Source: Bacteroidia bacterium (GTDB lineage: Bacteria; Bacteroidota; Bacteroidia; Bacteroidales; VadinHA17). Taken from it: DNA of 64,000 nucleotides. Of the stretch, positions 4,803-57,555 are shown one piece after another. The notes beneath the pieces were generated by a model that was not told where the DNA came from, did no database searches, and saw only the letters and a list, made by a program, of their open reading frames with translations. How positions within the stretch are numbered: position 1 is the first letter of the stretch; the number at the start of each line of letters is the position of its first letter. Both the position numbers and the translations under genes were made by a program. The stretch covers positions 27,301 through 91,300 of the forward strand of contig JAPLED010000129.1 in assembly GCA_026391475.1 (NCBI GenBank), given 5' to 3'.

Positions 4803-5885
4803 ATGAAAAACAGTATACATGTAAGGTTAACCCTTGAAGACGGAACGATCTATCATGGCCGGTCCTTCGGATCGCCCACCCCCGCTGCGGGAGAGGTGGT
4901 TTTTAATACTGCTATGACAGGATATCCAGAGAGTTTGACCGATCCATCCTATCGCGGACAGATACTTTGTCTCACCTATCCTCTGGTCGGAAACTATGGA
5001 GCACCAGGAAAAAGCGAAGAAAATGATCTTTATCGCTTTTATGAGTCGTCGTCTATTCACATCTCCGGGCTCATTGTGTCTGATTATTCCTTTGAGTATA
5101 GCCACTGGAATGCAACAGAGAGCCTCGATGAATGGTTGAAAAGAAATAATGTGCCGGGTATTTACGGGATAGATACAAGAGCTTTGACAAAAAGAATCCG
5201 TGAGAAAGGAGCTATGCTTGGCAAGGTTGAACCCGAAGGAACAGAAATCGGTTTTTATGACCCGAACAAAGTAAATCTTGTTGCTGAAGTAAGCACACAT
5301 GAAAAGAAAGTTTATGGCTCAGGAAAGTACAAGATACTACTCGTTGACTGTGGTGTTAAGTATAACATAATCAGAAATCTTCTTAAAAGGGATACTACAA
5401 TTATAAGGATACCATGGGACTATGATTTTCACAAAGAAGAATTTGACGGACTATTTCTTTCCAATGGCCCGGGTGATCCAAAAATGTGTGTCACCACTAT
5501 TGAAAACATTAAAAAAGCATTTTCCGGTGAAAAACCGGTATTCGGGATATGCCTGGGAAACCAGTTGATGGCGCTTGCTTCCGGAGCAGATACCTATAAA
5601 CTGAAATATGGCCACAGAAGCCACAATCAGCCGGTTCTTCAGGTAGGCACCGATAAAGCATATATTACATCGCAGAATCACGGATTTGCTGTCGATAACA
5701 AAACTTTAGGGAAAGACTGGGAATCACTCTTCATCAATATCAACGACCAGACAAATGAGGGAATGAAACATAAAACCCTGCCGTTTTTCTCTACTCAATT
5801 TCACCCCGAAGCGTCCGGCGGACCGACTGATACTGACTACCTGTTCGATGTTTTTATAGAAAATATAGAGAAATCAATGAAGTAG
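4803..5885 (+). CDS. carA: Carbamoyl-phosphate synthase small (glutamine amidotransferase) subunit
   Basis: 360 aa with the GICLGNQL catalytic Cys motif, the HRSHNQPV and FSTQFHPE triad region, and a typical CarA N-domain. Confidence 0.95.
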   Translation: MKNSIHVRLTLEDGTIYHGRSFGSPTPAAGEVVFNTAMTGYPESLTDPSYRGQILCLTYPLVGNYGAPGKSEENDLYRFYESSSIHISGLIVSDYSFEYSHWNATESLDEWLKRNNVPGIYGIDTRALTKRIREKGAMLGKVEPEGTEIGFYDPNKVNLVAEVSTHEKKVYGSGKYKILLVDCGVKYNIIRNLLKRDTTIIRIPWDYDFHKEEFDGLFLSNGPGDPKMCVTTIENIKKAFSGEKPVFGICLGNQLMALASGADTYKLKYGHRSHNQPVLQVGTDKAYITSQNHGFAVDNKTLGKDWESLFININDQTNEGMKHKTLPFFSTQFHPEASGGPTDTDYLFDVFIENIEKSMK

Positions 5886-5908
5886 GGACACGCCATGGTG
5901 TGTCCCTA
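5883..5908. terminator. Bidirectional hairpin between the convergent carA and argH genes
   Basis: TAGGGACAC pairs perfectly with GTGTCCCTA (9 bp) in the 37-bp gap between the two stop codons. Confidence 0.5.
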
Positions 5909-5922
5909 CTTCATTGATTTCT

Positions 5923-40836: not shown

Positions 40837-40867
40837 TATATGTCTATATTTGTATCCGATTATTATT

Positions 40868-42343
40868 CTATTTCTTTTTACTGCTTTTCGCCTTCTTAGC
40901 AGGTTTAAGAGGAGTTGTCTTTTTTACTGTTTTTGTTTTTGCTTTTAGTGGTCTTCCTGCACTTTTCTTTACCGGCGCCTTCGCAGAAACTTTGGTTTGC
41001 TTTTTTACCGGAATTTTTGCTTCCTTTTTGGGTTCTTTCTTTGTCAGTTTCTCAATCTCTGATGCCTGTTTTTCGATAATAATATCTTTTTCTATGATCT
41101 GTGAACCGAGCTTAAATATCTGAATCTGTTCTGCAGTATCAGGAAAATATTTTCTCAGCCTGATCTCAAAATCGCTGAGTACGTTCATATAATTCATAAA
41201 TGCGTCATATGGCGTTTCATATGGATTGAAATAGGCATGAACTGCTCCATCTGAAAAGAATTTCGTTGCCATATAGTAAAAATGGTCGCTCGACTGGAGA
41301 TATTCCCAGTCCTTTTTAATCTGGCCATCTTCACATTTATTTACCTTCCCTGCCAGGCTATATAATTTATCGAGAGCTGCAACCTGCAGCTCATTTCCGA
41401 GCCATGCGGTGATGTCGCGCTCTTCGTCAGCCCATGATATTGGAGAAGGAATGCTTATTGACGACACCGGTTGCAGTATATCGGCAATCTCCGTCGGGGT
41501 CATAAATCTGAATGGCGTTTTCTTAAGAACAGCGCCTGGCATATGATAGAGGAAATCAAATATTCCTGTCTCTTTCCAATTGTGTTCCCCGAATGTCTCA
41601 TAATCGAGAAAAATGTTTAAAAGTTCACTTTTAGGGGCAAGCTTATTTATCCATGATGCATATTTATCGGCTGTTAACGGCCATGCATTCCAGTCTCGGT
41701 TAGAGAACCGGAAAGCAATATCATCACTTAATACAAAGTTTCTCAATAGAATTTTAAGCCTGGGATTTATTGAATTACAATACAGATAGTTGGGACTTTT
41801 CCACCCCAATACATGCTTGGCGCCCTCAGTCAGAATAGACTTAAATCCCATATCAGCAACCCACGATCCTATCAGGTCAGAGTATATTAATTCAGTATTC
41901 CGGAATGATGTTGCTTCAACTCCCAGAAACTCTTTCAACATCTCTTTATGTTTTGTAACCTGGCGTTCAAATTCACTCCTGCTCTTCAGTGAAACCAGTG
42001 AATGTGAGTTGGTTTCTGCAAGGAATTCCACCATTCCCGTCTCTGCAAGCTTCCTGAATGAGTCAAGAACCTCAGGGGCATAAAGTCTGAACTGGTTGAT
42101 TACCAGACCTGAGAGGGAAAAGGTGACTTTAAACTTCCCTTTGTGCTTATGGATAAGATCCAAAATAATGTTATTAGCAGGGATGTAGCATTTCTCTGCT
42201 ACTTTTCTCATGATAGATTCATTCGAGAAATCATCATAATAATAATGATCGTGACCCAGGTCAAAAAACCTGTATCGCTTAAGCCTGAAAGGCTGATGAA
42301 CCTGAAAATAGAAGCATATCGCTTTTTTGCCTGATGCACTCAT
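40868..42343 (-). CDS. Glycoside hydrolase family 57 protein with a Lys-rich C-terminal tail
   Basis: The N-terminal FQVHQPFRL and the ETFGEHNW region are typical of GH57. The last 57 aa or so are a KKxPxK-rich tail. Confidence 0.82.
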   Translation of the reverse strand: MSASGKKAICFYFQVHQPFRLKRYRFFDLGHDHYYYDDFSNESIMRKVAEKCYIPANNIILDLIHKHKGKFKVTFSLSGLVINQFRLYAPEVLDSFRKLAETGMVEFLAETNSHSLVSLKSRSEFERQVTKHKEMLKEFLGVEATSFRNTELIYSDLIGSWVADMGFKSILTEGAKHVLGWKSPNYLYCNSINPRLKILLRNFVLSDDIAFRFSNRDWNAWPLTADKYASWINKLAPKSELLNIFLDYETFGEHNWKETGIFDFLYHMPGAVLKKTPFRFMTPTEIADILQPVSSISIPSPISWADEERDITAWLGNELQVAALDKLYSLAGKVNKCEDGQIKKDWEYLQSSDHFYYMATKFFSDGAVHAYFNPYETPYDAFMNYMNVLSDFEIRLRKYFPDTAEQIQIFKLGSQIIEKDIIIEKQASEIEKLTKKEPKKEAKIPVKKQTKVSAKAPVKKSAGRPLKAKTKTVKKTTPLKPAKKAKSSKKK

Positions 42344-42353
42344 ATCTTAATAC

Positions 42354-43646
42354 TTAATTATTCCAAATTACTCTATAATATATATCCCGTACATGCCTGA
42401 CTGAATTATCCCATTTAAGGCGGATAACTTCCTCTTTACCGTTTTTAATAAACATGTTAGACAGGGCCGGATAGTTGAGGATACCATAAATTGCATCGGC
42501 CATTGCATCAATATCCCAGAAGTCGGCTTTCACGGCATGTGTAAGTATCTCAGCAACACCCGACTGCTTACTTATAATAACAGGTACGTTCGACTGCATT
42601 GCTTCGAGCGGTGAGATACCAAATGGTTCTGATACTGATGGCATAATATAAACATCGCTCATATCCAGCATAGTAAAAACATCTGCCCCTTTAAGGAATC
42701 CCGTAAAATGGAAGCGGTCAGTTATTTTCAGTGTGGCAGCTCTTCTAATCATCCTTTCCATCATATCTCCCGAACCTGCCATGACAAACCTGACATTATC
42801 CATCACCTGAAGAACCTTATAAGCGGCTTCAATAAAATATTCAGGACCTTTCTGAAGGGTTATGCGGCCAAGAAATGTGACCACCTTTTCATCAAAACCT
42901 TTTTTAATGATAAGGTTTTCAGAAATCGTCACCGGTTCTACGGCGTTATAAACAGTTTCAACCTTTTCAGGATTGATATGGTATTTGTTTATGACAATGT
43001 CCCTGGTCAGGTTACTGACTGTGATTATTTTAGAGGCAGCATCCATTCCACTCTTCTCGATGCGGTATACATCGGGATTGACATTCCCTCCGCTACGGTC
43101 GAAGTCTGTTGCATGGACATGGATAACAAGAGGTTTCCCCGACACTTCCATGGCAGCAATACCGGCAGGATAAGCGAGCCAGTCATGCGCATGGATAATA
43201 TCAAACTCATTTTCCTCAGCTATTACAGAGGCAACGATGGCATACTTGTTTATTTCATCCATAAGGAAATCGTCATATTTTCCTGAAAAATCGACCATGC
43301 CTCTACTGTTTGTCTGGACAAAAAGACTATAACCTGAGACTTCTGATGTGACCATTTTCCAGAAATCTTCAGGATCGGTATAAGGAACAATTTTTGATGA
43401 TACTTCAATTTTTTCCAGAGGACGTCTGAACCCTTTATAATAAACCTTCTTGAATGATACCGGTACCTTGTTTGCACCAATCAGCCGGACCATGGTCTGA
43501 TCCTCATCACCCCATACCTTAGGAACAACAAAGATAACTTCCAGATCATCGAGGGTTGCCATGCCTTTTGTTAAACCAAAACTGGCAGTACCTAATCCGC
43601 CTGAGATATGAGGCGGAAATTCCCATCCAAACATTAAAACACGCAT
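42354..43646 (-). CDS. GT4-type (group 1) glycosyltransferase, putative second alpha-glucan synthase
   Basis: MRVLMFGWEFPPHISGGLGTA N-terminus and the EPFGISPLEAM E-x7-E motif. It sits between the GH57 and GH133 genes. Confidence 0.8.
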   Translation of the reverse strand: MRVLMFGWEFPPHISGGLGTASFGLTKGMATLDDLEVIFVVPKVWGDEDQTMVRLIGANKVPVSFKKVYYKGFRRPLEKIEVSSKIVPYTDPEDFWKMVTSEVSGYSLFVQTNSRGMVDFSGKYDDFLMDEINKYAIVASVIAEENEFDIIHAHDWLAYPAGIAAMEVSGKPLVIHVHATDFDRSGGNVNPDVYRIEKSGMDAASKIITVSNLTRDIVINKYHINPEKVETVYNAVEPVTISENLIIKKGFDEKVVTFLGRITLQKGPEYFIEAAYKVLQVMDNVRFVMAGSGDMMERMIRRAATLKITDRFHFTGFLKGADVFTMLDMSDVYIMPSVSEPFGISPLEAMQSNVPVIISKQSGVAEILTHAVKADFWDIDAMADAIYGILNYPALSNMFIKNGKEEVIRLKWDNSVRHVRDIYYRVIWNN

Positions 43647-43658
43647 ATCCTACCTCTA

Positions 43659-45608
43659 TTATTGATTTGCATACTTAGTTTCAAGCAGCTCGATTATTCT
43701 CAGCACCTCACCTACACTCCATGCCTGTGAAATAGCCCCCTGTGGTGAATGAGGAGGATCGCCGTCATGGATTTCGGAAATGGTACTTACTCCATGCTCA
43801 CTCATCACAGCTTCAAGACCAAAAATCAGTTTTTTTACTTTCTGTACCCCTTGTTGCCCATATACTTTCAACCAGCCTTCACAGAAGGGGCCATACAACC
43901 ATGGCCAAACAGTACCCTGATGATATGCATTATCCCTCTCCTCTTGATTTCCTTTGTATATGCCATGATAAAATTTATTACCCGGAGAAAGAGTTCTCAA
44001 CCCTCTAGTCGTAACAAGCTCTTTATCTGCAATATCCAGAACTTTCTTCATCTGTTCTTTATCAAGCATCGAATAAGGCAGCGAAACAGCAATAACCATA
44101 TTTGGCCTGACAAAATTATTTTTACCTTCATCATCGTTAATATAATCAGCCAGATAGCCCAATTTGTCATCCCAAAATATTTCAAGAAATGATTTTTTTA
44201 TCAGGTCAGCCAGTTTTTCATATTCTTTAATAAACTTTTTATCATTTTCAATCCTGGCCATTTCAAGAGAGAAGCATACAGCATTATACCAGAGTGCATT
44301 TATTTCGACAGCGTAACCTCTACGTGGTGTAACAGGAATTCCATTTACCACTGCATCCATCCAGGTAAGTGATTTCCCCGGGGCATCAGCATAAATAAGT
44401 CCGTTATCTCTCATGTGGATATTAAAAGCAGTGCCGTTTTTATAGGCATTCAGTACAGATTTTGCGGCTGTACCATATCGCTCCCATCCATCGGTGCCGC
44501 CATGTTCTACATACTGCTGAACAGCCCAAAAAAACCATAGAGGTGCATCAACTGAGTTAAAAGCGGGGTTGCTTGCATCTCCCATATTAGGGAACAAACC
44601 ATCCTTCATCCTGTTAATCTGGGTATCAAGCACCTCTCTGTAGAGAACCAGTCTGTGACGGGCCAAAGCCAGTCCCGGAAGCGAAATAAAAGTGTCTCTC
44701 CCCCATGCACCAAACCATGGATAGCCGGCAATAATAAGAGTTTTTCCTCCCCGTTTTTCAACAAATTGCTGAGCAGCATTTCTTAAACAATTAATAAAAC
44801 TATCTCTGGGAATTTTTCCGGAAACTGTCTTTGTAAACTTCTGCTTTAGTCCTGATGTCTTTTCCTCTTTCGTTGAAGCGGAAAATACTATAATATCTCC
44901 CTCTTTTGCCTCAACCTCAAAAAAACCCGGAGTAAAAAGATCTTCAGAAAAATCATATCCCCGCTTTTGTTCTTCAGGATATTCGACACCTAAGTACCAA
45001 TCAGGATTATGAATAAACTCAACATTTGCAGAAAACTGCATATATAAAGAAGGGAATCCTTCATATAATTTTGATTTGATCCCGTTTTCAATGAAGTCAA
45101 CCTTTGTATTTGCAGCCATATTGGCATGTGCCAGCTGGTGAATATTTCTGAAAACCAGAAACGGGCGTACCTGGAGCTTCATTGGTTCAGATGCTTCAAT
45201 AATCGTAAACCTGAGAAGAAATTGTTCTTTATAATGAACCAGTAATCTCTCTTGTTTCAGGATAACTCCGCCAACCCTGTAAATTCTTGACGGAATGGTA
45301 TCAGTGTTAAAGTCCTCTATATATTTATGCCCCTTTGGACTGAAATAATCACCTTTATATTTTCTTATACCCATATTAAAACTCTTGTCATTATTAACCA
45401 CTGTAACATCAAGAGAGGAGAGAAGTACAAATCTTTCGCCGCCAAACTCATCTACCGGGCATATAAGTAATCCATGGTATTTACGAGTGTTACAGCCAAC
45501 AATAGTAGTTGAGGAGTAAGATCCTGCCCTGTTTGTCCTTATGATCTCCCTTCTCAGCGAATACTCAAGGTTTACTACCTGGCTTTTTTCGAACTTAATG
45601 TAACTCAT
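43659..45608 (-). CDS. Amylo-alpha-1,6-glucosidase / glycogen debranching enzyme (GH133-like, GDE_C)
   Basis: 649 aa with GYPWFGAWGRDTFISLPGL and the AYHQGTVWPWL motif typical of GDE C-domain proteins. Confidence 0.85.
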   Translation of the reverse strand: MSYIKFEKSQVVNLEYSLRREIIRTNRAGSYSSTTIVGCNTRKYHGLLICPVDEFGGERFVLLSSLDVTVVNNDKSFNMGIRKYKGDYFSPKGHKYIEDFNTDTIPSRIYRVGGVILKQERLLVHYKEQFLLRFTIIEASEPMKLQVRPFLVFRNIHQLAHANMAANTKVDFIENGIKSKLYEGFPSLYMQFSANVEFIHNPDWYLGVEYPEEQKRGYDFSEDLFTPGFFEVEAKEGDIIVFSASTKEEKTSGLKQKFTKTVSGKIPRDSFINCLRNAAQQFVEKRGGKTLIIAGYPWFGAWGRDTFISLPGLALARHRLVLYREVLDTQINRMKDGLFPNMGDASNPAFNSVDAPLWFFWAVQQYVEHGGTDGWERYGTAAKSVLNAYKNGTAFNIHMRDNGLIYADAPGKSLTWMDAVVNGIPVTPRRGYAVEINALWYNAVCFSLEMARIENDKKFIKEYEKLADLIKKSFLEIFWDDKLGYLADYINDDEGKNNFVRPNMVIAVSLPYSMLDKEQMKKVLDIADKELVTTRGLRTLSPGNKFYHGIYKGNQEERDNAYHQGTVWPWLYGPFCEGWLKVYGQQGVQKVKKLIFGLEAVMSEHGVSTISEIHDGDPPHSPQGAISQAWSVGEVLRIIELLETKYANQ

Positions 45609-45790: not shown

Positions 45791-46957
45791 ATGAATAAGA
45801 AGCTTTTTCTGTACCTGTTTGCAGCAATTTTATTTGCCGGTTGTAAAAATAATACTGTCCATATTTCAGGCAACCTGGTAAACCCTGTCATCGGAGAATA
45901 TATATTTCTTGATGAACTGAAGTCAAATGAGCTGACAACTATCGATTCCATAAAGATTGCGGATGGTGGAACATTTGATTTTAAAAGGGAGATTGAACTT
46001 CCCTCCTTTTACCTGCTCAAAATTAATGAAAATAACTTCCTGACTATGCTTGTTGAACCTGGTGAAAAAATCACTCTTAATGCATATTACGATTCGTTGA
46101 ATTATCCTATATCTATCATCGGATCAAAAGGAACAGAATCGATGGCTGAATACAACAGAACTCTCAGAAAAATCATTAATAAATTAACAGGGTTGAATAA
46201 CATTTATATGCAAAATGTTGATAGCCCTCAATTACCGGCTGTGATTGAATCGCTCGATAGTATAGCTCAGACATATCTGAATGAGATTAATTTATACACA
46301 AAGAGTTACATTGATGAGAACCTTACATCACTTGTAAGCCTTGTAGCACTATATCAACAGGTTGCGCCGAATAAATATGTTCTTAATCCTTCCAGGGATC
46401 TGAAGTATTTTGTAAAGGTTGACTCATCCATGTCTATACTGTACCCGGAATATGAGCCGGTTACTTTACTTCATAAACAGGTTCAGGAATTGGTTGCCGG
46501 TATTAAAGGGGAAACGGTTATAGCACCTGCATCAGGAGAGGGAACTGAAGCTCCCGAAATTTCACTTCCGACACCGGATGGTGATACAATTAAACTTTCG
46601 TCCACCAGGGGATCAGTTGTATTGCTAGATTTCTGGGCTGCTTGGTGCGTTCCCTGCAGGCAGGAGAGCCCTAATCTTGTTAAAGCATACAACCTTTATC
46701 ATAAGAAAGGATTTCAGATTTACCAGGTGTCGCTTGACAAAACCAAAGAAGCCTGGATGAAAGGTATTCAGGATGATAAACTTGAGAACTGGATTCATGT
46801 CAGTGACGTTCAATACTGGAATTCGGTAGTTGTTCCACTCTATAAGATTGAATCCATTCCTTATAATTTCCTTCTTGATAAAGAGGGTCGTATAATTGCT
46901 ACAACGCTCAGGGGGGAACAGTTGCAAATTAAACTGGCTGAGCTATTTAACAAATAA
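45791..46957 (+). CDS. TlpA/AhpC-TSA thioredoxin-fold lipoprotein (thiol:disulfide oxidoreductase) with an N-terminal DUF4369-like domain
   Basis: Lipobox LFAGC and the active site WAAWCVPCRQE (CxxC). Confidence 0.8.
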   Translation: MNKKLFLYLFAAILFAGCKNNTVHISGNLVNPVIGEYIFLDELKSNELTTIDSIKIADGGTFDFKREIELPSFYLLKINENNFLTMLVEPGEKITLNAYYDSLNYPISIIGSKGTESMAEYNRTLRKIINKLTGLNNIYMQNVDSPQLPAVIESLDSIAQTYLNEINLYTKSYIDENLTSLVSLVALYQQVAPNKYVLNPSRDLKYFVKVDSSMSILYPEYEPVTLLHKQVQELVAGIKGETVIAPASGEGTEAPEISLPTPDGDTIKLSSTRGSVVLLDFWAAWCVPCRQESPNLVKAYNLYHKKGFQIYQVSLDKTKEAWMKGIQDDKLENWIHVSDVQYWNSVVVPLYKIESIPYNFLLDKEGRIIATTLRGEQLQIKLAELFNK

Positions 46958-46996
46958 CAATTAAACTGAATTCAGAAAACTGGAAATCCGATTTTA

Positions 46997-48157
46997 ATGA
47001 AACGAATACTATTTTTCCTGGCTCTGGTTTTTATTATATCAGGATGCAAAGACAAGGGTACATTCTCTGTCGATGGAGTTATTAATGGTGAAACAAAAAA
47101 ATATGTCTATATCAACAGAATAGATGTAGATACTCCGGTATTAATTGACTCTTCAAAAATCAGTAAAAAAGGTGTATTCCGGTTTAAAGTCAAGGCTTCC
47201 GAAGTTGATTTTTACCAGCTTGGCTTTTCTTCAAAAGATTTCATTACTATCCTGGCTGAACCGGGGGAAAAGATCAAACTTATGTTTAACGGCAAAAATC
47301 TTTTTGAAGACTACTCTGTCAGCGGATCCGCTGGATCAGAAAAGATACAAATCCTCGATCTCGCACTTACTGATACAAAAAGAAAACTTGATTCTTTAAT
47401 TACAGCTTATAAAAAAGCCTCCGGGGGGACCGGATTTGATGTACAAGGCCCGGCACTCGAAGCAGAATACGGCAAATTGATAAAAGAACAGAGAAAAAAG
47501 AATATTGAATTCATTATTAACAACATAAACTCTCTGGCTTCAATAAAAGCTCTATACCAGAGGATCGACCCGGAAACATATGTTCTTTATGAGCAACACG
47601 ATCTCCAGTATCTTAAAATTGTCATTGATTCCCTGACACATCATTATCCAAACTCAAAACATGTACAGGCCCTTGTAAGGGATTTTGAAAAGGAGTTGAA
47701 TCAGATGTATGCAGCTCAGCTTGAGCAGATAACCAAAGATATGCCCCAAACAAAACTTGATCCTGATTTAAAAAATATTGCGGGAAAGAGAATAGCACTC
47801 TCCTCGCTCAGGGGAAAATATGTTCTCCTGACATTCTGGTCGGTCCGGTCAAAAGATTGTATTGAGGAAAACCTGCAGCTGAAGGAGTTTTACAAACAAT
47901 ACAATAAAAAAGGATTTGAGATATATCAGATCAATCTCGACGAAAGTGAATCGGACTGGAAATCGGCTGTTAAATTTGATGAATTGCCATGGATCAGCAC
48001 CAGGGAAGATGATCCCCTCAATCCAAAAAATGCGTTGATCTTCAATGTGAAAAATCTCCCTGCCAATTATCTGTTTGACAAGGACAGTAAGATCATTGCA
48101 TCAAACCTTCACGGCAGATCACTTCAGCTGAGACTCGAACAGTTGTTTAATAAATAG
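46997..48157 (+). CDS. TlpA-like thioredoxin-fold lipoprotein paralogue lacking the CxxC motif
   Basis: Same length and architecture as the upstream gene (lipobox IISGC, shared ...LFNK C-terminus). The active-site position reads WSVRSKDCIEE, with only one Cys retained. Confidence 0.75.
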   Translation: MKRILFFLALVFIISGCKDKGTFSVDGVINGETKKYVYINRIDVDTPVLIDSSKISKKGVFRFKVKASEVDFYQLGFSSKDFITILAEPGEKIKLMFNGKNLFEDYSVSGSAGSEKIQILDLALTDTKRKLDSLITAYKKASGGTGFDVQGPALEAEYGKLIKEQRKKNIEFIINNINSLASIKALYQRIDPETYVLYEQHDLQYLKIVIDSLTHHYPNSKHVQALVRDFEKELNQMYAAQLEQITKDMPQTKLDPDLKNIAGKRIALSSLRGKYVLLTFWSVRSKDCIEENLQLKEFYKQYNKKGFEIYQINLDESESDWKSAVKFDELPWISTREDDPLNPKNALIFNVKNLPANYLFDKDSKIIASNLHGRSLQLRLEQLFNK

Positions 48158-48943: not shown

Positions 48944-49483
48944 TCAGATTAGTATTGAGTTCATCTCATTCCGGCACTTGATGCAAATGTTTGCACTTTT
49001 TTGATCAATGTCTTCAACATAAGTGCTTGACCTCATTACACAGGTTGGAATATGGCAGTGTATTAATCCAAAAGTATGACCAAGTTCATGGATAACCTCT
49101 TTCTTAAAACGATCCAGAATAAATTTGTCATCTGTATTCATACCATAACGTTCATTACTTAACCGGTAAAGAGAAGCAATTCCTGTGCGACCGTTTAAAA
49201 ATGCCTGTCCGAAAATATATGTCAGGATAGGAATAAAAAGATCCACACTGAATAATCCAAGGCTTTTATCAGAATCGGAAGAGTAAATAGAATCAACTTC
49301 CTTTAAAAGTTTGGTGCCATTATATTGTCTGCGGCCAGGATCGTAAAATTCGCTTAAATCAAGATGACCTTCTTTAGTATTCACTGAAAAGCGGAATTCA
49401 TGTTTTACAGCCTCAGCAATATTCTTAAGAAAATCTTCCTCGAAATACCCGAAAGAGATCAATGTGATATTTTGCAGATCCAT
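48944..49483 (-). CDS. Archaemetzincin-family zinc metallopeptidase (M54-like)
   Basis: HELGHTFGLIHCHIPTCVMRSS-x-CIKC matches the archaemetzincin signature HExxHxxGx3Cx4CxMx(16-17)CxxC. Confidence 0.8.
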   Translation of the reverse strand: MDLQNITLISFGYFEEDFLKNIAEAVKHEFRFSVNTKEGHLDLSEFYDPGRRQYNGTKLLKEVDSIYSSDSDKSLGLFSVDLFIPILTYIFGQAFLNGRTGIASLYRLSNERYGMNTDDKFILDRFKKEVIHELGHTFGLIHCHIPTCVMRSSTYVEDIDQKSANICIKCRNEMNSILI

Positions 49484-49578: not shown

Positions 49579-50919
49579 TCAATCTGCAGGTTTTAAACCG
49601 TACTTTGAAATCTTATTGTAAAGAGTTACCCTATCGACCTTTAAAGCTTTTGCGGCACGCGAAATGTTCCAGTTATATTTATTAAGAATCTGAAGAATGT
49701 GTGTTTTCTCGAGGTCATCGAGGCTCTCAATGGAACTACTTATAATGGTTTTTTCCAGAGGAAGATCCTTAAGTGAGATTTTCTTGCCGTTTCCTACTAC
49801 GATTGCCCGCTCAATCATATTTTCAAGTTCACGGACATTGCCCGGAAAATTAAATTCTTCCAGACGTTTTAAAGCGGCGGAATCTATTGCAACAGGTGGC
49901 CTGTTCATAGATATGCAATACTTTTTTATGAAATAATCTACAAGCAGGGGAATATCCTCAATTCGTTCACGCAACGGTGGAACATAAATATTCACAACGT
50001 TCAGCCGGTAATACAGATCCTCGCGAAAGATTCCCTTTTCGACCATGCTTTTCAAATCCCTGTTTGTGGCACAGATTACCCTGAAGTCTGATGAAATTTC
50101 CTTGTTCCCTCCTACCCGTACAAAACTCTTTGATTCCAGAACACGCAGCAAATCTATCTGCATTTTTGTAGATATTGTGGCAATTTCATCAAGGAAGATA
50201 GTCCCGTTATCAGCCATTTCAAACCGACCCTTACGATTATACATAGCCCCGGTAAATGCTCCCTTTTCATGCCCGAATAATTCACTTTCCAGTAAGCTTT
50301 CTGTCAAAGCACCGCAATGTACGCTGACCAATGGGAAAAATTTACGGGGAGAATTGGAATGAATGGCCCTGGCTACCAGCTCTTTGCCAGTGCCGCTTTC
50401 ACCTGTAATTACAACTGAAGAATTAGACTGGGCAACACTTTCAATATCCTTAAGAATCTTTTTCATTGCTTCACTGTTGCCAATCAGATCTTCAACATTT
50501 TCAAGTGAAACAACCCTTTTTTTCAGGTTTTCATTTTCTTCAGTCAAAGAGATTTGCTTTGAAGCATTCCGGATCAGATGCGAAAGGTCGTCCGGATCAA
50601 AAGGTTTTGTTATATAATCAAATGCGCCGTCTTTCAATGCCTGAACAGCTGTATCAACGGTGGCAAAAGCTGTTATAACAATGACAATTGAATCTGTTTT
50701 CAGGAGTTTAATCCTTCTTAGCATTTCCAACCCGTCCATCCCCGGCATTTTTATATCAGCAAGGATAATGTCAAAGCAGTCAGATTCAAGCATTGACAAC
50801 GCTCTCTTGGCATTTTCGGCACATTCGACGCGATATCCGTCTTCTATGAACCAATTGTACAATGAGTCTCTTACGGATTCTTCATCGTCAACTATTAATA
50901 TTGATATTTTTTTCGCCAT
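49579..50919 (-). CDS. Sigma-54-dependent response regulator (NtrC/ZraR-type enhancer-binding protein)
   Basis: Receiver domain (ILIVDDE...ADIKMPGMDG), AAA+ Walker A GESGTGKE, the GAFTGA sigma-54 contact loop (EKGAFTGA), and a C-terminal Fis-type HTH. Confidence 0.93.
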   Translation of the reverse strand: MAKKISILIVDDEESVRDSLYNWFIEDGYRVECAENAKRALSMLESDCFDIILADIKMPGMDGLEMLRRIKLLKTDSIVIVITAFATVDTAVQALKDGAFDYITKPFDPDDLSHLIRNASKQISLTEENENLKKRVVSLENVEDLIGNSEAMKKILKDIESVAQSNSSVVITGESGTGKELVARAIHSNSPRKFFPLVSVHCGALTESLLESELFGHEKGAFTGAMYNRKGRFEMADNGTIFLDEIATISTKMQIDLLRVLESKSFVRVGGNKEISSDFRVICATNRDLKSMVEKGIFREDLYYRLNVVNIYVPPLRERIEDIPLLVDYFIKKYCISMNRPPVAIDSAALKRLEEFNFPGNVRELENMIERAIVVGNGKKISLKDLPLEKTIISSSIESLDDLEKTHILQILNKYNWNISRAAKALKVDRVTLYNKISKYGLKPAD

Positions 50920-50930
50920 TGTTTATTCTC

Positions 50931-52607
50931 CTAAATCCTGATTAAAGGTAAAGTTATTGATATTGTAGTTCCCTTTCCAAGCTCTGATTTTACTTCGATC
51001 TTCCCGTTATGACTTTTCACAATTCCATGAACAATTGCCAAACCCAAGCCAATACCACTTGTATCATGTTTTGTCGAGAAGAATGGTTCGAAAATATGTG
51101 GAATGTCATCCCCGGGAATACCTATTCCGTTATCTGATATTTCAATTTTTATTGTATCTCCGTCAGGGTTTTTGGTGGAGATTACAATTTCTCCGTTTTC
51201 CAGGACGGCTTCCGAAGCATTTACAAGAATTGCAACACAAGCCTGTTTAATCTGGTTCGGACTACAAGATATAAGATCCGATTTAGCTGTAAAATCTGTC
51301 AGGAAGCTGATATTTGCAATTTTAATAGGATGGGCCATTAAATCATAGGTTTCCTGCAATATCTTATGAAGATGTTTAGATTCAAAATCTTCCTGCTCTT
51401 TTCTTGAAAAATCCAATAAACCTTTAACTATTTCTCCGCAACGTTTTGTTTCATTTTCAATTAGTTTTAAATGCTTAAGAATTGAATCCTTTTTGGACGC
51501 AGATAAGTCAGGATTACTTAACTGTTTATATATCAATTTGGTATAGATTAAAATCCCCGATAGTGGATTATTTATTTCATGTGCAACAGAAGAGGATAAT
51601 TTTCCAAGAGATGCTATCCTCTCAATATGTATCAGCTCGTTTTGAGCTGCCCCTAATTCTTCGGATTTTTTCTGAACCTTATATTCAAGTTGTTGCGACC
51701 AGTTTTGCAATTCTTCTGTAGCAGATTGCAGATTATCAAGCATATCATTAAATGCCTGGGAAACCATCCTCATATCATCAAGTTGATTGGATTTTATTTC
51801 CAGTCTTGTGCTTTTATTACCATTGGCAACAGCCATGCTGGCTTTTATGATATCATTTAATGGATTTTTAATCTGTTTCCTGGTGAACAATATTAAAATT
51901 AAAACAAGGAGCAGAGTTGTAATTGTTGCCAGCAGGTAAAACTTGTTTGAAGACTTTTCTACGGCATTATCCAGGTCATCAAGGGGCATTTTTATTATAA
52001 GAAAACCCAGAACTTCATCACTCTCCTGATGAGCATGACAGGAGCTTGTATAGCAGGATTTTTCATTAAGAATAGGGGATCTGATTAACAGATGTCTGTG
52101 ACTGTTATCGTTTTGATTCATGCTACATTCACTTTTGATATCAAATATCCTGTAAGACTTCTCCTTCCTGGGAAACATCGATTGAATATTCTTATGGCAA
52201 CTCAAACAATTTGGATTGCTATGGCTGGCTGTATCAGAAGTAAAAGATGAATAAACAAGACTATCCCGGACATCATACATGTTAACATCATCAATACCCG
52301 ACATGGTATTAATAATATCAAGAGTACTCTGAAGTGTACTTTTATTGTTTTCGAGCATTGAATGATATAAAGACCCCTCAACGATGGAACCTATATTATT
52401 ACCACTCTGACGAATAACTATATTTAAATTTTGCTCGTATACAGATCTGAAAATGACACCAAATACCACAAACAGAATAACGGACGATAACGTTATGATA
52501 TAGACAACCCGGCTATAGATCGAAGACCGGAATTTAACATACTTTTTAAGGAGCGTTTTTACCTTATTATTTTCAGGAGCTGAATTATCTGATTGACCCA
52601 TTGCCAA
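50931..52607 (-). CDS. Sensor histidine kinase with a periplasmic Cys/His-rich (CXXCH) domain and a HAMP linker
   Basis: Two TM segments (about aa 33-55 and 224-242) bracket a domain containing C134-L-S-C-H138 and C185-x4-C190-H191. H-box [11 protein letters not shown], and G-boxes DNGIGI and GIGLGLAI. Confidence 0.9.
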
Positions 52608-52696
52608 ATTCCTATATGATTTATTTTATCCCTATCAAAATTATCATAAAAAATCAATTTTCAGGCACCGGTTCAGAATTCAATTTTTCAGCAGGT

Positions 52697-53407
52697 CTAA
52701 TTTAAAAAAGATTCCTGGAAATCCTGCCATACTTCGTCAGGTAGTTTTGAAAGAGGCTGGTCGCATAATTCACCACCATCCTGCAATATTACCATTGAAA
52801 CTTCGGGTGAATATTTATTCATCGATATCGCCAGAAAATCCTTAAATCTTTCCAGTTCTTTTTTTGACCAGGCTATTGCTTCATCAGCCAGATAATAAGA
52901 GTCCGTTTCTGCGATCCATTCTGAGGGTTTGATCTTGTAAATCCACCCTTTTCCATAAGGGTCTTCATTTATAACTCCGGGGCTTTCATAAAGCATAGTA
53001 TTTGTATTCATGATCCGCCCTGATAGAGGTGAATATATTTGCAGAAGCTTCCCGTTTTGATCAATATCAGCAAGTAATTCTCCCTTGTTTATAAAATTAC
53101 CCGGATTTTTAAGATTGCTGAATTTCACCTCACCAGTAATATGCAACAGAAAATCATCCAATCCTACTTTGGCTGTCCCGGATTTTTCCAGATGAGTCCA
53201 TGTATGATTTTTGCTGTAAAACAACCCTTGTGGAATTCTTAAAATACTGGCAGAGAGAACCCCAATTGCTCTCTTAATTTGTCTTGTTATTCCTGCTTGT
53301 TTGTTTATTATGATCCAGAATGGAATTATCATTAACAGGAAAGCGATTATTATCAGATATTCAATTCCTTTTGTTTCAAAAATATTATTGTAGCTGAATC
53401 CGTCCAT
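52697..53407 (-). CDS. Single-pass membrane protein with a GcvH-like (lipoyl/hybrid-barrel) domain and a conserved C-terminal extension
   Basis: TM at about aa 17-35 followed by K/R residues. HTWTHLEKSGTAKVGLDDF...IYSPLSGRI...DPYGKGWIYKIKP parallels glycine-cleavage H protein. Confidence 0.75.
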   Translation of the reverse strand: MDGFSYNNIFETKGIEYLIIIAFLLMIIPFWIIINKQAGITRQIKRAIGVLSASILRIPQGLFYSKNHTWTHLEKSGTAKVGLDDFLLHITGEVKFSNLKNPGNFINKGELLADIDQNGKLLQIYSPLSGRIMNTNTMLYESPGVINEDPYGKGWIYKIKPSEWIAETDSYYLADEAIAWSKKELERFKDFLAISMNKYSPEVSMVILQDGGELCDQPLSKLPDEVWQDFQESFLN

Positions 53408-53456
53408 TTTTTTAATTTTTATGCTTACACATCAGAACATGCGAAAGCCGGTTAGT

Positions 53457-54686
53457 TTAATTTTTATCATTTACCCATGAGGGTGATTCGCGTAAAACGG
53501 GCATACGGTTAATTACCCATCTGAAAATCCATATTTCAGTAAATATTACTGCAAGAGTGACGGCTAGTTCCATCCATGTCGGAACATATCGAATTGCAGC
53601 ATCCCATCTGAAACCAATAACTGTGACGTTAAGCCTGTTCATGATGACTCCAAGCATTGTCAGTATGGCTGCAACTTTGATCATAAAAATGTTATTTCTA
53701 CGGTAACTGTAAAAGAATAGCATCATCGGTAAAAAGACAAAACCAAACATCTCAAGGAGATACCAATATCCCATTGGTGTGCTTAACAGGTCCCAGCGCT
53801 TTCCGTGTATGAAGACGAGCACCTGTAAGAAGAAGTATGCAAACATGGCAACGGCACAAATCTTTGATAATCCTGTTAATATCCCGTTATGTGCCTTATG
53901 ATTTCCTTCACTGATTTGTTTGAAAAATACCTTCTGGCTTATGGAACCTTCAAAAATGACCATAGACAGTCCTGCAAAAATACTTGAAACAAAAAACAGG
54001 ACAGGAATAAATTCAGAATACCAAAGCGGATGTATCTTATCTTTTGCCATCAGGTAAAGCGCACCCAATCCGGATTGGTGCAGTGTGGATAATGTGATGC
54101 CGAAAATAACTGCAGCAATAGTCATACCTGACAGGATTTTCCTTGCACGTTTTGCTCCAAGCCATTCTGCAATAGCCGGTGAAAATTCAATCAGCTGCGC
54201 TATCATATAAAGCAGAAAATGCCAGGCAACCAGAAATAAAACAGAACTGGTACCAAAACTGTTCCCGATAATAGGATTGACCACGTTCCACGGGCGTCCC
54301 AGGTCCAAGAGCAAGGCTCCGGCGTAAAACACATAAGCCAGAAACCCGTTTAAAACAGTTATTCGTACAATTGAATGGTACTTCTGCATATTCAGAATAT
54401 AAACCATAAAGGTGAGCACATAAGCACCCCCTGCAAAGGCAACACCTGTAACTACATCAAAACCAATCCATAATCCCCATGGAACCTCCTGCGTAAGATT
54501 TGTTATTGACCCTAATCCCTTCCAGAAACGAATTACAATCAGTACCAGGCCTAAAATCATTACCGGAATGGAAATAATATTAAAAGGTGTAAGGAATTTA
54601 CCCCTGGGTTTTAATTCGCCTGCCAGAAACCGCCAAATGGATTTACCATCATTATCTTTTGCTATAGTATAGTCTGTATTACTCAT
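53457..54686 (-). CDS. NrfD/PsrC/HybB-family integral membrane (quinone-interacting) subunit
   Basis: About 10 TM segments and NrfD-like composition. The ATG at 54686 overlaps the upstream stop by 8 nt (ATGAGTAA); the ORF track extends to 54725. Confidence 0.82.
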   Translation of the reverse strand: MSNTDYTIAKDNDGKSIWRFLAGELKPRGKFLTPFNIISIPVMILGLVLIVIRFWKGLGSITNLTQEVPWGLWIGFDVVTGVAFAGGAYVLTFMVYILNMQKYHSIVRITVLNGFLAYVFYAGALLLDLGRPWNVVNPIIGNSFGTSSVLFLVAWHFLLYMIAQLIEFSPAIAEWLGAKRARKILSGMTIAAVIFGITLSTLHQSGLGALYLMAKDKIHPLWYSEFIPVLFFVSSIFAGLSMVIFEGSISQKVFFKQISEGNHKAHNGILTGLSKICAVAMFAYFFLQVLVFIHGKRWDLLSTPMGYWYLLEMFGFVFLPMMLFFYSYRRNNIFMIKVAAILTMLGVIMNRLNVTVIGFRWDAAIRYVPTWMELAVTLAVIFTEIWIFRWVINRMPVLRESPSWVNDKN

Positions 54687-55542
54687 TTTCATCTGCATTA
54701 GAGTTATTATTTTTAGTTGCTTCACGGATACCTAATAATATTGCGGGCCAGAGAACAAATACAGTAGGAACACTATAAAGAAATCCTTTCGACAATTCCG
54801 GGTATGATTTTGACTGAAGAGATGTATTACAACCGAGCTCATCAAAAGGAACAGCGGATAGATATAAAAACCCGGTTCCCCCGGCTTCATGTTCTCCGTA
54901 TATATGATCTACATATTGTTCGGGATTATCATTAATTCTTTTACGTGCTTCTTTTATCAATTCTCTTCGTGTTCCGAAAACTAATGCTTCTGCAGGGCAG
55001 TTCTCAACACAGGCAGGAATTTTTCCTTCCTTAAGCCTGTTATAGCACATGTTACATTTTTCAATTTTGGGATTTGCACTGTGATATTCAAATTTTGGAA
55101 TATCAAACGGACATGAAACCATGCAATAGCGGCATCCCATACATTTATCTCCTCTCCAGATAACTGCTCCTTCTTTTGTTTTATACATTGCCTGGGTAAG
55201 ACAAGCAGCTGTGCATGCAGGTTCATTACAATGCATACACTGTTTTTTAAGATACGCTTCACCTTTTGAAGTGTTGAATGCATTTACTACAGTCCTGTGC
55301 GATTCGTCTGTTTTTCTTACAACACCTGCCTGAATTGTGCCAACCGGTGCCGGCAACCCGTTTGCCTCAGCACAGGAAGACTCGCAGGTCTGGCAACCCA
55401 CACAACGGGTTGAATCGTACAGAACACCGGAGAATTCAATATTATTTTCTGTTTTGGGGGCAGCTCTTAATTGCTTGCCTATGGCTAATGTAGCTCCTGT
55501 AACACCAATTACCTTAAAAAAGTTTCTTCGATTTAAAGTCAT
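54679..55542 (-). CDS. Tat-exported 4x[4Fe-4S] ferredoxin-type subunit (NrfC/HybA/DmsB family) with a C-terminal TM anchor
   Basis: Twin-arginine signal MTLNRRNFFKVIGVTGATLA. Four Cys clusters: CVGCQTCESSC, CMHCNEPACTAAC, CMGCRYCMVSCP and CNMC...CVENCP. C-terminal hydrophobic helix VPTVFVLWPAILLGI. Start moved from 55719 to 55542 to avoid overlap with the upstream gene. Confidence 0.85.
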   Translation of the reverse strand: MTLNRRNFFKVIGVTGATLAIGKQLRAAPKTENNIEFSGVLYDSTRCVGCQTCESSCAEANGLPAPVGTIQAGVVRKTDESHRTVVNAFNTSKGEAYLKKQCMHCNEPACTAACLTQAMYKTKEGAVIWRGDKCMGCRYCMVSCPFDIPKFEYHSANPKIEKCNMCYNRLKEGKIPACVENCPAEALVFGTRRELIKEARKRINDNPEQYVDHIYGEHEAGGTGFLYLSAVPFDELGCNTSLQSKSYPELSKGFLYSVPTVFVLWPAILLGIREATKNNNSNADENE

Positions 55543-55564
55543 ATTTTTTTGTTTTCTGAAATTT

Positions 55565-57283
55565 TTAAAATAATTCATAAAACCAGAATTGTCTTGAAGG
55601 TTCAATGAAATTTGTCTGAAAATCTTCCCATATTTCAGGCCCAAGATTTGAAAGAGTACCGTCTCTGAGTTCACCTCCATCCTGGAGAATAATCCGGGCA
55701 TATTTTTCTGAATTCGCATTAAGAGATACTGCCAGAAAATCCTTTAACCTTGAAAATTCATTTTTTATATGCTGTTTATGTTTATCGGCCATAAATAATA
55801 ACTGATTTTCTCTGAGCCAGTTTGTCGGCTCTATCTTATAAATCCAACCATCGGTATAGGGTGATGAATTTATTATTGATGAATTTTTGTCCAGTGCTTT
55901 ATTTTGCTCTTTAATAATTCCTGAAATAGGGGCATAAAGATTTAATTGTTTGCCATTTTGAATGATGGATAAAATCTGTTCACCTTTTTTTATTCTTTCC
56001 CCCTCATTTTTCATCTTTATGCGGGTAAGTGTTCCGGTTATATGCTGAAGAAAGTCATCAATCCCTACTTTTACAACTCCATTTTGTTCCATGAAGGCCC
56101 AGGTGTGTGTTTTGTCAAAATAAATACCTGCCGGGACAATTACCGAGTTTTCATCAAGAACAGGTTGAGAAATATAACCGGCAATGTGTACTGCAGAATT
56201 TTTACGTCGCAGGTACCGGACTAAAGCATCCACTGTGAGACCAGTCATAATTAATGCAGCTATAATCAACAGCATTGTTTTTAGATAAGACTTATCATTC
56301 GTAGTTGCACCCGGATAGGTTTTAGCAGTATATAATTTATCAACTGTAGTTTGTCTTTCGCTTATTAAGAGATCAGAATAGCCATTACTATATAAAAATT
56401 GCTGCCCGTCAGTGAGAATCCATTTCAGGAATGCTACTTCAGTTTCATTTTCAGGTTGATTTGAGGAAACAGAATAAATATTACTGATTAAAGTTTTGGG
56501 ATATTTTCCAATCCATACTCCCCTGGAAAAGACATTAAAATCATCATAAATCTTTTCATTATAGTCAATTAAGCCATTACCGTTTCTGTCAATTGGTAAT
56601 AATTTGATATTTTCAACAATGCTTTGATTCTTAAAATCAATGATGTTTACCATTTTACTAAACCCTATTGCGTAAGGGTCTTTTTGAATTGCTGAAATCA
56701 TTTCTTCTCCGTTTTCAACTTGAATTCCAACATTTTTAATCTGATCTGTTTTCAGGAAGTTGGTCAATCCGGTTGTTATTGATTCATCATTTATCCAATA
56801 GTAATGAACTTGTGATCTTTGTTCATTATTCAGGAGAGTTCCCCACTTCCGGGAATCCGGATTATTTAAAAACCGGACAAAAGCTTCGGGGGAAATGCCG
56901 TGCTGATAAATTTCATCGAGAAAAGGATTTTTTGAATTGATAACCGGGACAATAACATCGCGACCCACAACAACTTTCCATAATGATTGGGTTTTAAAGC
57001 CTGAATAATATTCATTTGAAACAAAACCAATATCTCCGTCTGTAATTAATTTATCAGCCATTTGGATATCTGAAACATTTATTACCTTAATCTTCATTTC
57101 AGGATATAATCTGTTATATTCATTTGCCCACTTAATTGAGAGATTATATAAATCCGGAGTACTCAATACTTTTATTGAATCCCCGGGGGAAGGATTGTTT
57201 CCAGTCACTAAATCCTTACAGCTTAAGTAGCTGTAATTCATTAGTAACAAGCTGATTAATAAACAAATTATTTTTTTCATCAT
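55565..57283 (-). CDS. Fusion lipoprotein: periplasmic PstS-like (PBP_like_2) domain, single TM, then a cytoplasmic GcvH-like domain
   Basis: Signal peptide and lipobox (NYSYLSC). PstS-family pattern (DIGFVSNEY..., GRDVIVPVINSKNP, YAIGF, KYPKTL). TM at about aa 334-356 followed by RYLRRK. From about aa 385 it parallels the 236-aa protein (HTWAFMEQNGVVKVGIDDF...LYAPISG...GWIYKIEP...ILQDGGEL). Confidence 0.75.
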   Translation of the reverse strand: MMKKIICLLISLLLMNYSYLSCKDLVTGNNPSPGDSIKVLSTPDLYNLSIKWANEYNRLYPEMKIKVINVSDIQMADKLITDGDIGFVSNEYYSGFKTQSLWKVVVGRDVIVPVINSKNPFLDEIYQHGISPEAFVRFLNNPDSRKWGTLLNNEQRSQVHYYWINDESITTGLTNFLKTDQIKNVGIQVENGEEMISAIQKDPYAIGFSKMVNIIDFKNQSIVENIKLLPIDRNGNGLIDYNEKIYDDFNVFSRGVWIGKYPKTLISNIYSVSSNQPENETEVAFLKWILTDGQQFLYSNGYSDLLISERQTTVDKLYTAKTYPGATTNDKSYLKTMLLIIAALIMTGLTVDALVRYLRRKNSAVHIAGYISQPVLDENSVIVPAGIYFDKTHTWAFMEQNGVVKVGIDDFLQHITGTLTRIKMKNEGERIKKGEQILSIIQNGKQLNLYAPISGIIKEQNKALDKNSSIINSSPYTDGWIYKIEPTNWLRENQLLFMADKHKQHIKNEFSRLKDFLAVSLNANSEKYARIILQDGGELRDGTLSNLGPEIWEDFQTNFIEPSRQFWFYELF

Positions 57284-57368
57284 CTAAATATTTTAATTCG
57301 TCTGCTTTGAATAATACAATAACAACGAATATATTTTTCTCTGTTATTTTATTAACAATATATGTCTT

Positions 57369-57384
57369 TCAACTATAGTGCCAA
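57369..57384 (-). promoter_or_regulatory. Candidate sigma-54 (-24/-12) promoter for the 57283->49579 gene string
   Basis: The minus strand reads T-TGGCAC-TATAG-TTGA-A. The -24 element is perfect and the N5 spacing is correct. The -12 element is TTGA rather than TTGC. It lies about 86 nt upstream of the ATG at 57283. Confidence 0.4.
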
Positions 57385-57539
57385 TAAAAAAACAAGAACC
57401 AATGCCTTGTATATCTGAGCTTTAATATAATTACGGAGTAATAGAATGAAGGTGTGAGGTGTTGAATTTACTTACACTGTATATAAATTAGACCTGTAAA
57501 GTTCTGTTATCGAAATGATTTACTATTGCTGTATATATT

Positions 57540-57555
57540 TTCAACACCTGTTGAA
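57540..57555. promoter_or_regulatory. Perfect palindrome TTCAACA-CC-TGTTGAA, a candidate enhancer (UAS) for the sigma-54 activator
   Basis: 7-2-7 inverted repeat about 160 bp upstream of the -24 element, with an extra half-site GGTGTTGAA at 57458-57466. Confidence 0.3.

Follow-up and report, generated by a model that had tools for sequence, protein, structure and literature searches.

The 64-kb stretch of DNA analyzed here (contig JAPLED010000129.1 of a Bacteroidia bacterium; the whole stretch, at its full length, is called "the window") carries, at 49579-57283, six co-directional open reading frames (ORFs) on the minus strand. A first-pass annotation, made from the sequence alone, had described them as a sigma-54-controlled membrane redox module, where an iron-sulfur (FeS)/NrfD pair is flanked by two membrane-tethered GcvH-like proteins and accompanied by a histidine kinase and a sigma-54 activator. 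All six genes, and all the domains named for them, were confirmed at the level of ORFs, Pfam and NCBIfam. The extent of the cluster had to be corrected: an archaemetzincin gene at 48944-49483 had been missed, and the conserved unit consists of seven genes. They are listed below from upstream to downstream; the two GcvH-like proteins are indicated as type-A and type-B.

55565-57283, minus strand: type-A subunit, 572 aa, with a signal peptide, a PstS-like periplasmic binding protein (PBP) domain, one transmembrane (TM) segment, a predicted cytoplasmic H-protein-fold domain and a 70-aa C-terminal extension.
54679-55542, minus strand: four-[4Fe-4S] protein of the HmcB/HybA type, 287 aa, exported by twin-arginine translocation (Tat), with a Fer4_11 domain and a C-terminal TM anchor.
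53457-54686, minus strand: NrfD-family integral membrane subunit of the HmcC/HybB type, 409 aa, whose start overlaps the FeS stop by 8 nt.
52697-53407, minus strand: type-B subunit, 236 aa, with a conserved 15-aa N-terminus, one TM segment, a predicted cytoplasmic H-protein-fold domain and a C-terminal extension containing LQDGGE.
50931-52607, minus strand: sensor histidine kinase (Pfam HAMP, HisKA, HATPase_c), with a periplasmic PAS/Cache-like domain bearing haem-c motifs.
49579-50919, minus strand: sigma-54 enhancer-binding response regulator, with REC, AAA+ (containing GAFTGA) and HTH_8 domains (Sigma54_activat, 235 bits).
48944-49483, minus strand: cytoplasmic archaemetzincin (Peptidase_M54), the seventh gene (NF033823, 157 bits, cutoff 145).

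The distribution of the cluster was evaluated by scanning a collection of species-representative genomes with the type-B protein: more than 515 matching stretches were found, the 80 best of which were used for locus analysis. At E-values below 1e-30, about 315 clusters at 50% identity are counted. Divergent type-A proteins, used as seeds for a metagenome scan, provided 80 additional loci. The order PBP-GcvH, FeS, NrfD, TM-GcvH, kinase, regulator, Peptidase_M54 is complete in 90 of the 164 related loci; 59 more feature the same seven-gene order up to the end of the contig, bringing to 149 the loci where the order is kept. The arrangement put forward in the first-pass annotation is thus found again in relatives, with a frequency far beyond chance. 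It is maintained even where the type-B protein is only 38% identical, and in loci whose GC content ranges from 33% to 56%. The genes flanking the cluster in the window, in turn, are shared by no more than 12 of about 80 loci, and de novo clustering of the flanking ORFs in the 80 best genome loci revealed no additional family present in more than 12. Nearly all of these 80 loci come from Bacteroidales metagenome-assembled genomes (MAGs), labelled Prolixibacteraceae, Lentimicrobiaceae, Mariniphaga, Tangfeifania or Draconibacterium; the cluster is present in hundreds of uncultured anaerobic Bacteroidales.

The first four genes are closely spaced, with median gaps, across loci, of 48, -4 and 52 nt; the median gap ahead of the kinase gene is 186 nt. 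The 8-nt overlap reported between the second and third gene is real: the NrfD ATG overlaps the FeS stop within ATGAGTAA, read as gaaaATGAGTAAtac. Gene callers sometimes start NrfD at an ATG 12 nt farther upstream. For the FeS protein, the listed ORF is longer than the gene, whose true start, MTLNRRNFFK, contains the Tat motif. In the NCBIfam comparison, the FeS protein matches HmcB (332.4 bits, cutoff 420) and HybA (244.8 bits, cutoff 263), and the NrfD protein matches HmcC (400.5 bits, cutoff 550) and HybB (251.6 bits, cutoff 450): the matches are all full-length and all below cutoff. All 16 cysteines of the FeS protein are invariant in 75 orthologs, and its nearest solved structure is FdnH (1kqf_B); among solved structures, the NrfD protein has no sequence-detectable relative. 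NrfD is the most conserved member of the cluster, with identities to the window protein of 58-92%, mostly above 75%. The window protein is 31% identical to HybB from E. coli, and the equivalents of HybB residues R89, Y99, E148 and H184, whose mutation lowers hydrogenase-2 activity (PMC8076601), are kept in 82 of 82 NrfD sequences. The conserved residues point to a functional quinone-reactive module, as which the FeS/NrfD pair is predicted to act.

Pairs of this kind typically serve as adaptors that connect periplasmic redox enzymes to the quinone pool and, to our knowledge, every characterised one is accompanied by its catalytic partner. Here, in agreement with the first-pass annotation, the cluster encodes no catalytic partner, and in the 80 best genome loci none recurs at up to 6 kb from it. 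The 64-kb window contains no CXXCH-bearing ORF besides the kinase, and no other recognizable redox gene; hdr, dsrE and lplA-like genes are absent from the cluster and its flanks. The pair is, relative to its gene neighbourhood, an orphan.

The proteins flanking the pair are GcvH-like, as had been claimed. The Pfam family GCV_H (PF01597, cutoff 22.2) scores 89.7 bits for type-B and 96.6 bits for type-A. When the AlphaFold2 model of type-B (pLDDT 83) is compared by Foldseek, the top matches are H-proteins, with TM-scores of 0.87-0.91 and root mean square deviations of 1.5-2.2 A. Sequence identity is 22-34% to solved H-proteins (32-33% to those from E. coli and T. thermophilus), and the HxW, GxxDxxQ-like and PYxxGW motifs of the family are kept. 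The two proteins score 72.3 and 83.7 bits with the equivalog TIGR00527, below its cutoff of 115.85. The canonical position of the lipoyl-lysine (E-S-V-K-A), identified by ungapped alignment to 1onl and 3a8i, is occupied in type-B by Gly119, with Lys120 following it. Among 243 family members, Gly fills this column in 91-97%: in 137 of 151 short proteins and in 89 of 92 long ones. The flanking anchors are spaced as in true H-proteins, indicating that the lysine is displaced within the hairpin. Wallis and Perham are said to have observed, in 1994, that moving the target lysine of lipoyl domains by one residue abolishes their lipoylation. On these grounds, a lipoyl-carrier role of the H-protein-fold domains appears doubtful. 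Since the canonical lysine is missing, they are better read as non-lipoylated adaptor or regulatory subunits than as swinging-arm carriers: of the two roles left open in the first-pass annotation, carrier or adaptor, the latter is favoured.

Both paralogs end with a helical extension of about 70 aa, featuring an invariant LQDGGE and conserved Trp residues. Neither this extension nor the N-terminus of type-B corresponds to any Pfam family, even at E-values up to 10. The N-terminus and TM segment of type-B are nearly invariant (M1, F10, T12, K13, G14, E16, Y17), a behavior unusual for a plain anchor, which suggests specific contacts. The N-terminal TM segment of type-B is followed by four positive charges, the single TM segment of type-A by RYLRRK: by the positive-inside rule, both H-protein-fold domains are predicted to be cytoplasmic, as originally proposed.

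In the type-A protein a single TM segment separates the GCV_H domain from a match to PBP_like_2 (PF12849; 33 bits, cutoff 27). The latter region aligns weakly with the PstS structures 4pqj and 4omb (phmmer E = 2e-4), and scores 22 bits with TIGR02136, whose cutoff is 206.6. It had been suggested that this domain senses an oxyanion. In the alignment with 4pqj, an Ile is found at the Arg135 position and SGT aligns to S-I-T; these phosphate-ligand columns (Arg135, Ser-Gly-Thr) are poorly conserved in the window protein and 67 orthologs, and the whole PBP domain is missing in some relatives (loci L037 and L089), so that the suggestion is not sustained. Within the PstS-like domain, residues D232-E243 (window 56555-56590, DRNGNGLIDYNE) form instead an EF-hand-type loop, DKNGNGKIDYxE. 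Of 68 sequences (window protein and orthologs), 67 contain the pattern DxNxNGxIDxxE, as do 97 of 108 cluster representatives; the other six proteins of the cluster do not contain it. The PBP-like domain probably binds Ca2+, which, judging from this loop, is a better guess than an oxyanion. The description of type-A as a lipoprotein does not hold for the family either: the supposed lipoprotein cysteine, Cys22, is Ser in a 93%-identical ortholog, and a lipobox-like motif is found in only 6 of the 68 sequences. Lipoprotein status is not a family feature.

In L037, from a groundwater Bacteroidetes MAG, the PBP fusion is replaced by two tandem TM-only type-A GcvH-like genes (1150-2795). L089, a distant variant, features a TM-only type-A copy; an additional soluble GcvH-like ORF (5166-5921), with a Cys-rich N-terminus (CxxxxxCxxC), lies between its type-B and kinase genes. 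The radical-SAM gene upstream in L089 (366-1265) was considered as a possible lipoyl synthase and rejected: the family it matches best, with a score far under the cutoff, is a peptide epimerase of the YydG type. Two other apparent variants, the "soluble 167-aa" P0329 and the "high-GC short" P0254, proved to be type-A genes of the usual cluster, frameshifted or truncated. In L090 (6839-8501) and L091, frameshifts of long-read metagenomes split the type-A gene and several neighbours; frameshifted long-read assemblies of this kind account for spurious "soluble 166-167-aa GcvH-like proteins" in protein databases.

The periplasmic domain of the kinase, of about 170 aa, had been credited with CXXCH motifs. 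The first motif is of this type (C134xxC137H138), while the second is a CX4CH (C185x4C190H191). Both haem motifs, together with C161 and H193, are 100% conserved in 72 orthologs. The AlphaFold2 model of the sensor, of moderate confidence (pLDDT 71), shows a long helix followed by a PAS/Cache-like sheet; Foldseek retrieves for it WalK-type PDC domains and, ranked second, the haem-c sensor GSU0935 (3b42; E = 4e-5, TM-score 0.48). From motifs and model, the natural reading is that the kinase would act as a haem-based periplasmic sensor of redox state or of a ligand. The adjacent regulator matches the AtoC, NtrC and ZraR families of NCBIfam, in all cases below cutoff; with its REC, AAA+ (GAFTGA) and HTH domains, beside a HisKA kinase, it has the composition of a sigma-54-dependent two-component system. 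The archaemetzincin, a constant seventh member, is located downstream of the regulator in all 90 complete loci. Its zinc site, HExxHxxGxxH plus four cysteines (H132, E133, H136, H142, C143, C148, C167, C170), is invariant in 68 orthologs. In one sublineage (L140, also L100, L121, L123 and L165), an insertion of about 1.7 kb lies between kinase and regulator; in L140 (15896-16513) it contains a 205-aa ORF with a signal peptide, which looks like an outer-membrane beta-barrel protein.

Sigma-54 control, as proposed in the first-pass annotation, is backed by conserved motifs upstream of the first gene, located in the window as follows.

57369-57383, minus strand: sigma-54-type promoter motif TGGCAC-tatag-TTGA, located some 85 nt ahead of the first ATG.
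57459-57467, minus strand: second half-site, ATTCAACAC, candidate upstream activating sequence (UAS), found by k-mer enrichment.
57540-57555, minus strand: palindrome TTCAACAGGTGTTGAA, candidate UAS for the sigma-54 activator, found by the same k-mer enrichment.

The motif TGGCAY-N5-TTG precedes the first gene by 40-130 nt in 66 of 77 loci; the background is 0.014 per 400 nt. It is found in one of 75 regions ahead of the kinase gene, and in none of 69 ahead of the M54 gene. In 52 of 67 loci, the 260 nt preceding the promoter motif contain the 8-mer ATTCAACA/TGTTGAAT, as compared to 3.4% of background 260-nt windows; the conserved upstream site reads TTCAACA/TGTTGAA. Such an anatomy is that of a candidate enhancer-dependent sigma-54 promoter, which would drive the first four genes. 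The gap between the type-B and kinase genes contains TAATTTTG on the minus strand (window 52630-52650). This single match, which we take to resemble the -7 box of the Bacteroidetes primary sigma factor (TAnnTTTG), is only a lead: kinase, regulator and M54 could have a promoter of their own there. Scans of the region for intrinsic terminators and sigma-70 promoters gave counts equal to those of shuffled controls.

Reduced versions of the cluster are rare. In L112, L167 (8600-14411) and L170, UAS, promoter, PBP-TM-GcvH, kinase, regulator and M54 are kept, while FeS, NrfD and the type-B gene are missing; in L048 (8231-14623) just FeS and NrfD are missing. In all four, the kinase retains its haem motifs, indicating that the kinase haems are independent of the pair. 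The kinase haems were considered as the redox partner of the orphan pair, an idea weakened by these variants and by the promoter, which marks the pair as output.

Neither the cluster nor its combination of parts was found described in the literature searched, as the first-pass annotation had anticipated, and a family of this kind is absent from the listing in the NrfD review (PMC8076601). The cluster resembles GcvH, Hyb, Hmc, sHdr-LbpA and PstS, yet it fails defining features of each. The best-scoring relatives, HmcB and HmcC, belong to the Hmc/Nhc complexes (Hmc from Desulfovibrio), which share the Tat-exported four-cluster protein and a 10-TM-type NrfD subunit. The multihaem cytochrome HmcA/NhcA, the cytochrome b HmcE and the HdrD-like subunit HmcF are, in contrast, missing here, and the flanking positions are taken by two single-pass proteins with an H-protein fold. 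HybA/HybB, from hydrogenase 2 of E. coli, similarly combine a tail-anchored Tat FeS protein with a cofactor-less NrfD subunit, and their genes overlap in E. coli, as the window pair does by 8 nt; the cluster, however, has no hybO, hybC or maturation genes nearby, is differently regulated, and contains GcvH-like subunits in addition.

GcvH, LbpA from the sHdr system and GcvH-L from Firmicutes have the same fold as the window proteins. GcvH is soluble and about 130 aa long, whereas the window proteins, of 572 and 236 aa, are membrane-tethered, carry the extension of about 70 aa and have Gly at the lipoyl-lysine position. Their genes are not located beside gcvT/gcvP, hdr, or sirtuin/macrodomain genes. 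For sHdr-LbpA, the canonical lysine is found along with hdr-like genes and dedicated lipoate ligases; the window cluster has Gly and none of these genes. With PstS, type-A shares a PBP type-II family match, but the phosphate ligands are missing. The sensor domain weakly resembles those of GSU0935/GSU0582 from Geobacter (3b42), signalling proteins in which a periplasmic PAS-like domain with a CXXCH is likewise bounded by two TM helices. GSU0935 is, however, a chemoreceptor, while the window protein is a histidine kinase, with two motifs (CXXCH and CX4CH), an extra invariant Cys and a haem which is predicted. NtrB/NtrC, ZraS/ZraR and AtoS/AtoC feature the same HAMP-HisKA-HATPase kinase and REC-AAA+(GAFTGA)-HTH regulator; the candidate target promoter here likewise has a -24 TGGCAC and upstream palindromes, beside the regulator genes. 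They differ in sensor domain, target operon and -12 element (here TTGA/G), and the equivalog scores are below cutoff.

The explanation we favour, with a probability of about 0.45, is that the region forms a self-contained cluster for an envelope redox response in anaerobic Bacteroidales, dependent on sigma-54, where a haem sensor and sigma-54 control an operon for an Hmc/Hyb-type, menaquinone-linked periplasmic FeS module, with two non-lipoylated H-protein-fold accessory subunits and a partner encoded elsewhere. The membrane kinase would detect the periplasmic redox state, or a haem ligand, through its PAS/Cache-like domain with two covalent haem-c motifs, and, as its domain architecture suggests, would phosphorylate the NtrC-type activator. 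The latter may bind the conserved TTCAACA-N2-TGTTGAA sites and open the sigma-54 promoter of the four-gene operon. The operon would produce an HmcBC/HybAB-type module: on the periplasmic face, the Tat-exported, tail-anchored four-[4Fe-4S] protein; in the membrane, the cofactor-less NrfD subunit, which keeps the HybB proton-path residues and would react with menaquinone/menaquinol. Electrons would be passed between the menaquinone pool and a periplasmic partner encoded outside the cluster. The two single-pass proteins, each with a putative cytoplasmic H-protein-fold domain and the conserved helical extension, would flank the pair.

Several observations weigh against this explanation. A periplasmic partner was found neither in the cluster and the 64-kb window nor, in the 80 best genome loci, at up to 6 kb from the cluster. 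For the kinase sensor, the pLDDT of the model is just 71, and the TM-score to GSU0935 is low (0.48). The -12 element is TTGA or TTGG family-wide (window 57369-57372), the canonical one being TTGC; it may be a lineage-specific promoter variant in Bacteroidia. The residue following the canonical lipoyl position is Lys in 143 of 151 short and 88 of 92 long proteins, and mostly Arg in the others, and some modification of this shifted lysine may take place. The physical assembly of the four proteins, finally, is hypothetical, and the reduced variants imply that type-A can work without the redox pair. Of the four-protein complex proposed in the first-pass annotation, gene linkage stands, whereas an obligate complex is weakened by variants lacking FeS, NrfD and, in some cases, the short GcvH-like protein.

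The main rival, in itself somewhat unlikely, is a signalling device: PBP-TM-GcvH would serve the kinase-regulator pair, as would its short paralog, in the role of accessory sensor or adaptor, or both would be substrates of the archaemetzincin, and FeS/NrfD would report the menaquinone redox state to the kinase haems. Kinase, regulator and M54 accompany PBP-TM-GcvH in every locus which is long enough, including the variants without FeS/NrfD. In addition, the nearest FeS families (HmcB, NrfC) dock multihaem cytochromes, the kinase is the only cluster member with haem-c motifs, and the M54 protease shares with the GcvH-like domains a predicted cytoplasmic location. Sigma-54 promoter and UAS, however, precede the PBP-GcvH, FeS, NrfD and GcvH genes, as expected for a regulated output, not an input; both haem motifs persist where FeS/NrfD are lost, and the interaction itself is hypothetical. 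It is also possible, if unlikely, that the tethered H-protein folds are a new subunit class: either the shifted lysine, 95% conserved, is modified and couples a cytoplasmic reaction to the NrfD/FeS quinone module, or, with haem-c kinase, activator and archaemetzincin, these proteins make up a new envelope redox-signalling pathway, specific to anaerobic Bacteroidales.

Another alternative, that of a membrane module for a periplasmic [NiFe] hydrogenase (as HybA/HybB in Hyd-2) or for a multihaem cytochrome complex (Hmc/Nhc), with catalytic genes elsewhere and the GcvH-like genes as passengers, is improbable. It draws on the full-length HybA and HybB matches (245 and 252 bits), on the conserved functional residues of HybB and on the best scores, those of HmcB and HmcC, but all of these scores are under the NCBIfam cutoffs. 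Neither a hydrogenase nor a cytochrome gene is found in the 64-kb window, and none is recurrent within 6 kb in the 80 best genome loci; the GcvH-like genes flank the pair, under one promoter, in virtually every locus, unlike what would be expected of passengers. The first-pass annotation had envisaged a new quinone-linked complex, where the tethered GcvH-like domains are lipoyl-type swinging arms, gated by an oxyanion through the PstS-like domain. This appears improbable, despite the strong similarity to H-proteins (32-33% identity to those from E. coli and T. thermophilus; Pfam scores of 90-97 bits), the 94-96% conservation of a lysine beside the hairpin tip and a PstS-family match exceeding its cutoff. 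In 91-97% of members Gly takes the lipoyl-lysine column, several members have Arg for the neighbouring lysine, and a shift by one residue reportedly suffices to prevent lipoylation. Moreover, NrfD proteins are cofactor-less and the cluster encodes no haem-b or other transmembrane electron carrier, leaving no electron path between the cytoplasmic domains and the periplasmic FeS protein. The gating, in turn, conflicts with the unconserved Arg135 and SGT positions and with the loss of the PBP domain in L037 and L089. Chance juxtaposition of unrelated genes could invoke the promoter motif, which in the window taken alone is not above chance; it is refuted by an order kept in 149 of 164 loci, down to 38% type-B identity, at GC contents from 33% to 56% and with flanks that turn over.

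Two neighbouring regions of the window are located outside the conserved unit. Two tandem lipoproteins with DUF4369 and AhpC/TSA-thioredoxin-like domains (Pfam; 45791-48157, plus strand) adjoin the cluster downstream: found in 12 of about 80 loci, they are probably a case of synteny, outside the system. Farther along, a run of large ORFs on the minus strand (36613-45608) includes a 1407-aa ORF and a GDE_N/GDE_C protein similar to glycogen debranching enzyme (43659-45608), and is probably a block for glycogen or alpha-glucan metabolism.

The cluster thus presents an FeS/NrfD pair which, in place of a catalytic partner, is associated with two tethered H-protein paralogs, a haem-based sensor kinase of its own, as predicted, and a metalloprotease. 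With its function solved, the H-protein fold would gain a new use beyond the chemistry of lipoyl carriers, and the energy-transducing complexes of the NrfD family an additional type of subunit. In the conserved promoter and UAS, Bacteroidia would have a defined element of a sigma-54 regulon, whose -12 box is unusual, and the cluster as a whole would give a handle on redox sensing and response in abundant, mostly uncultured Bacteroidales of sediments and lakes.

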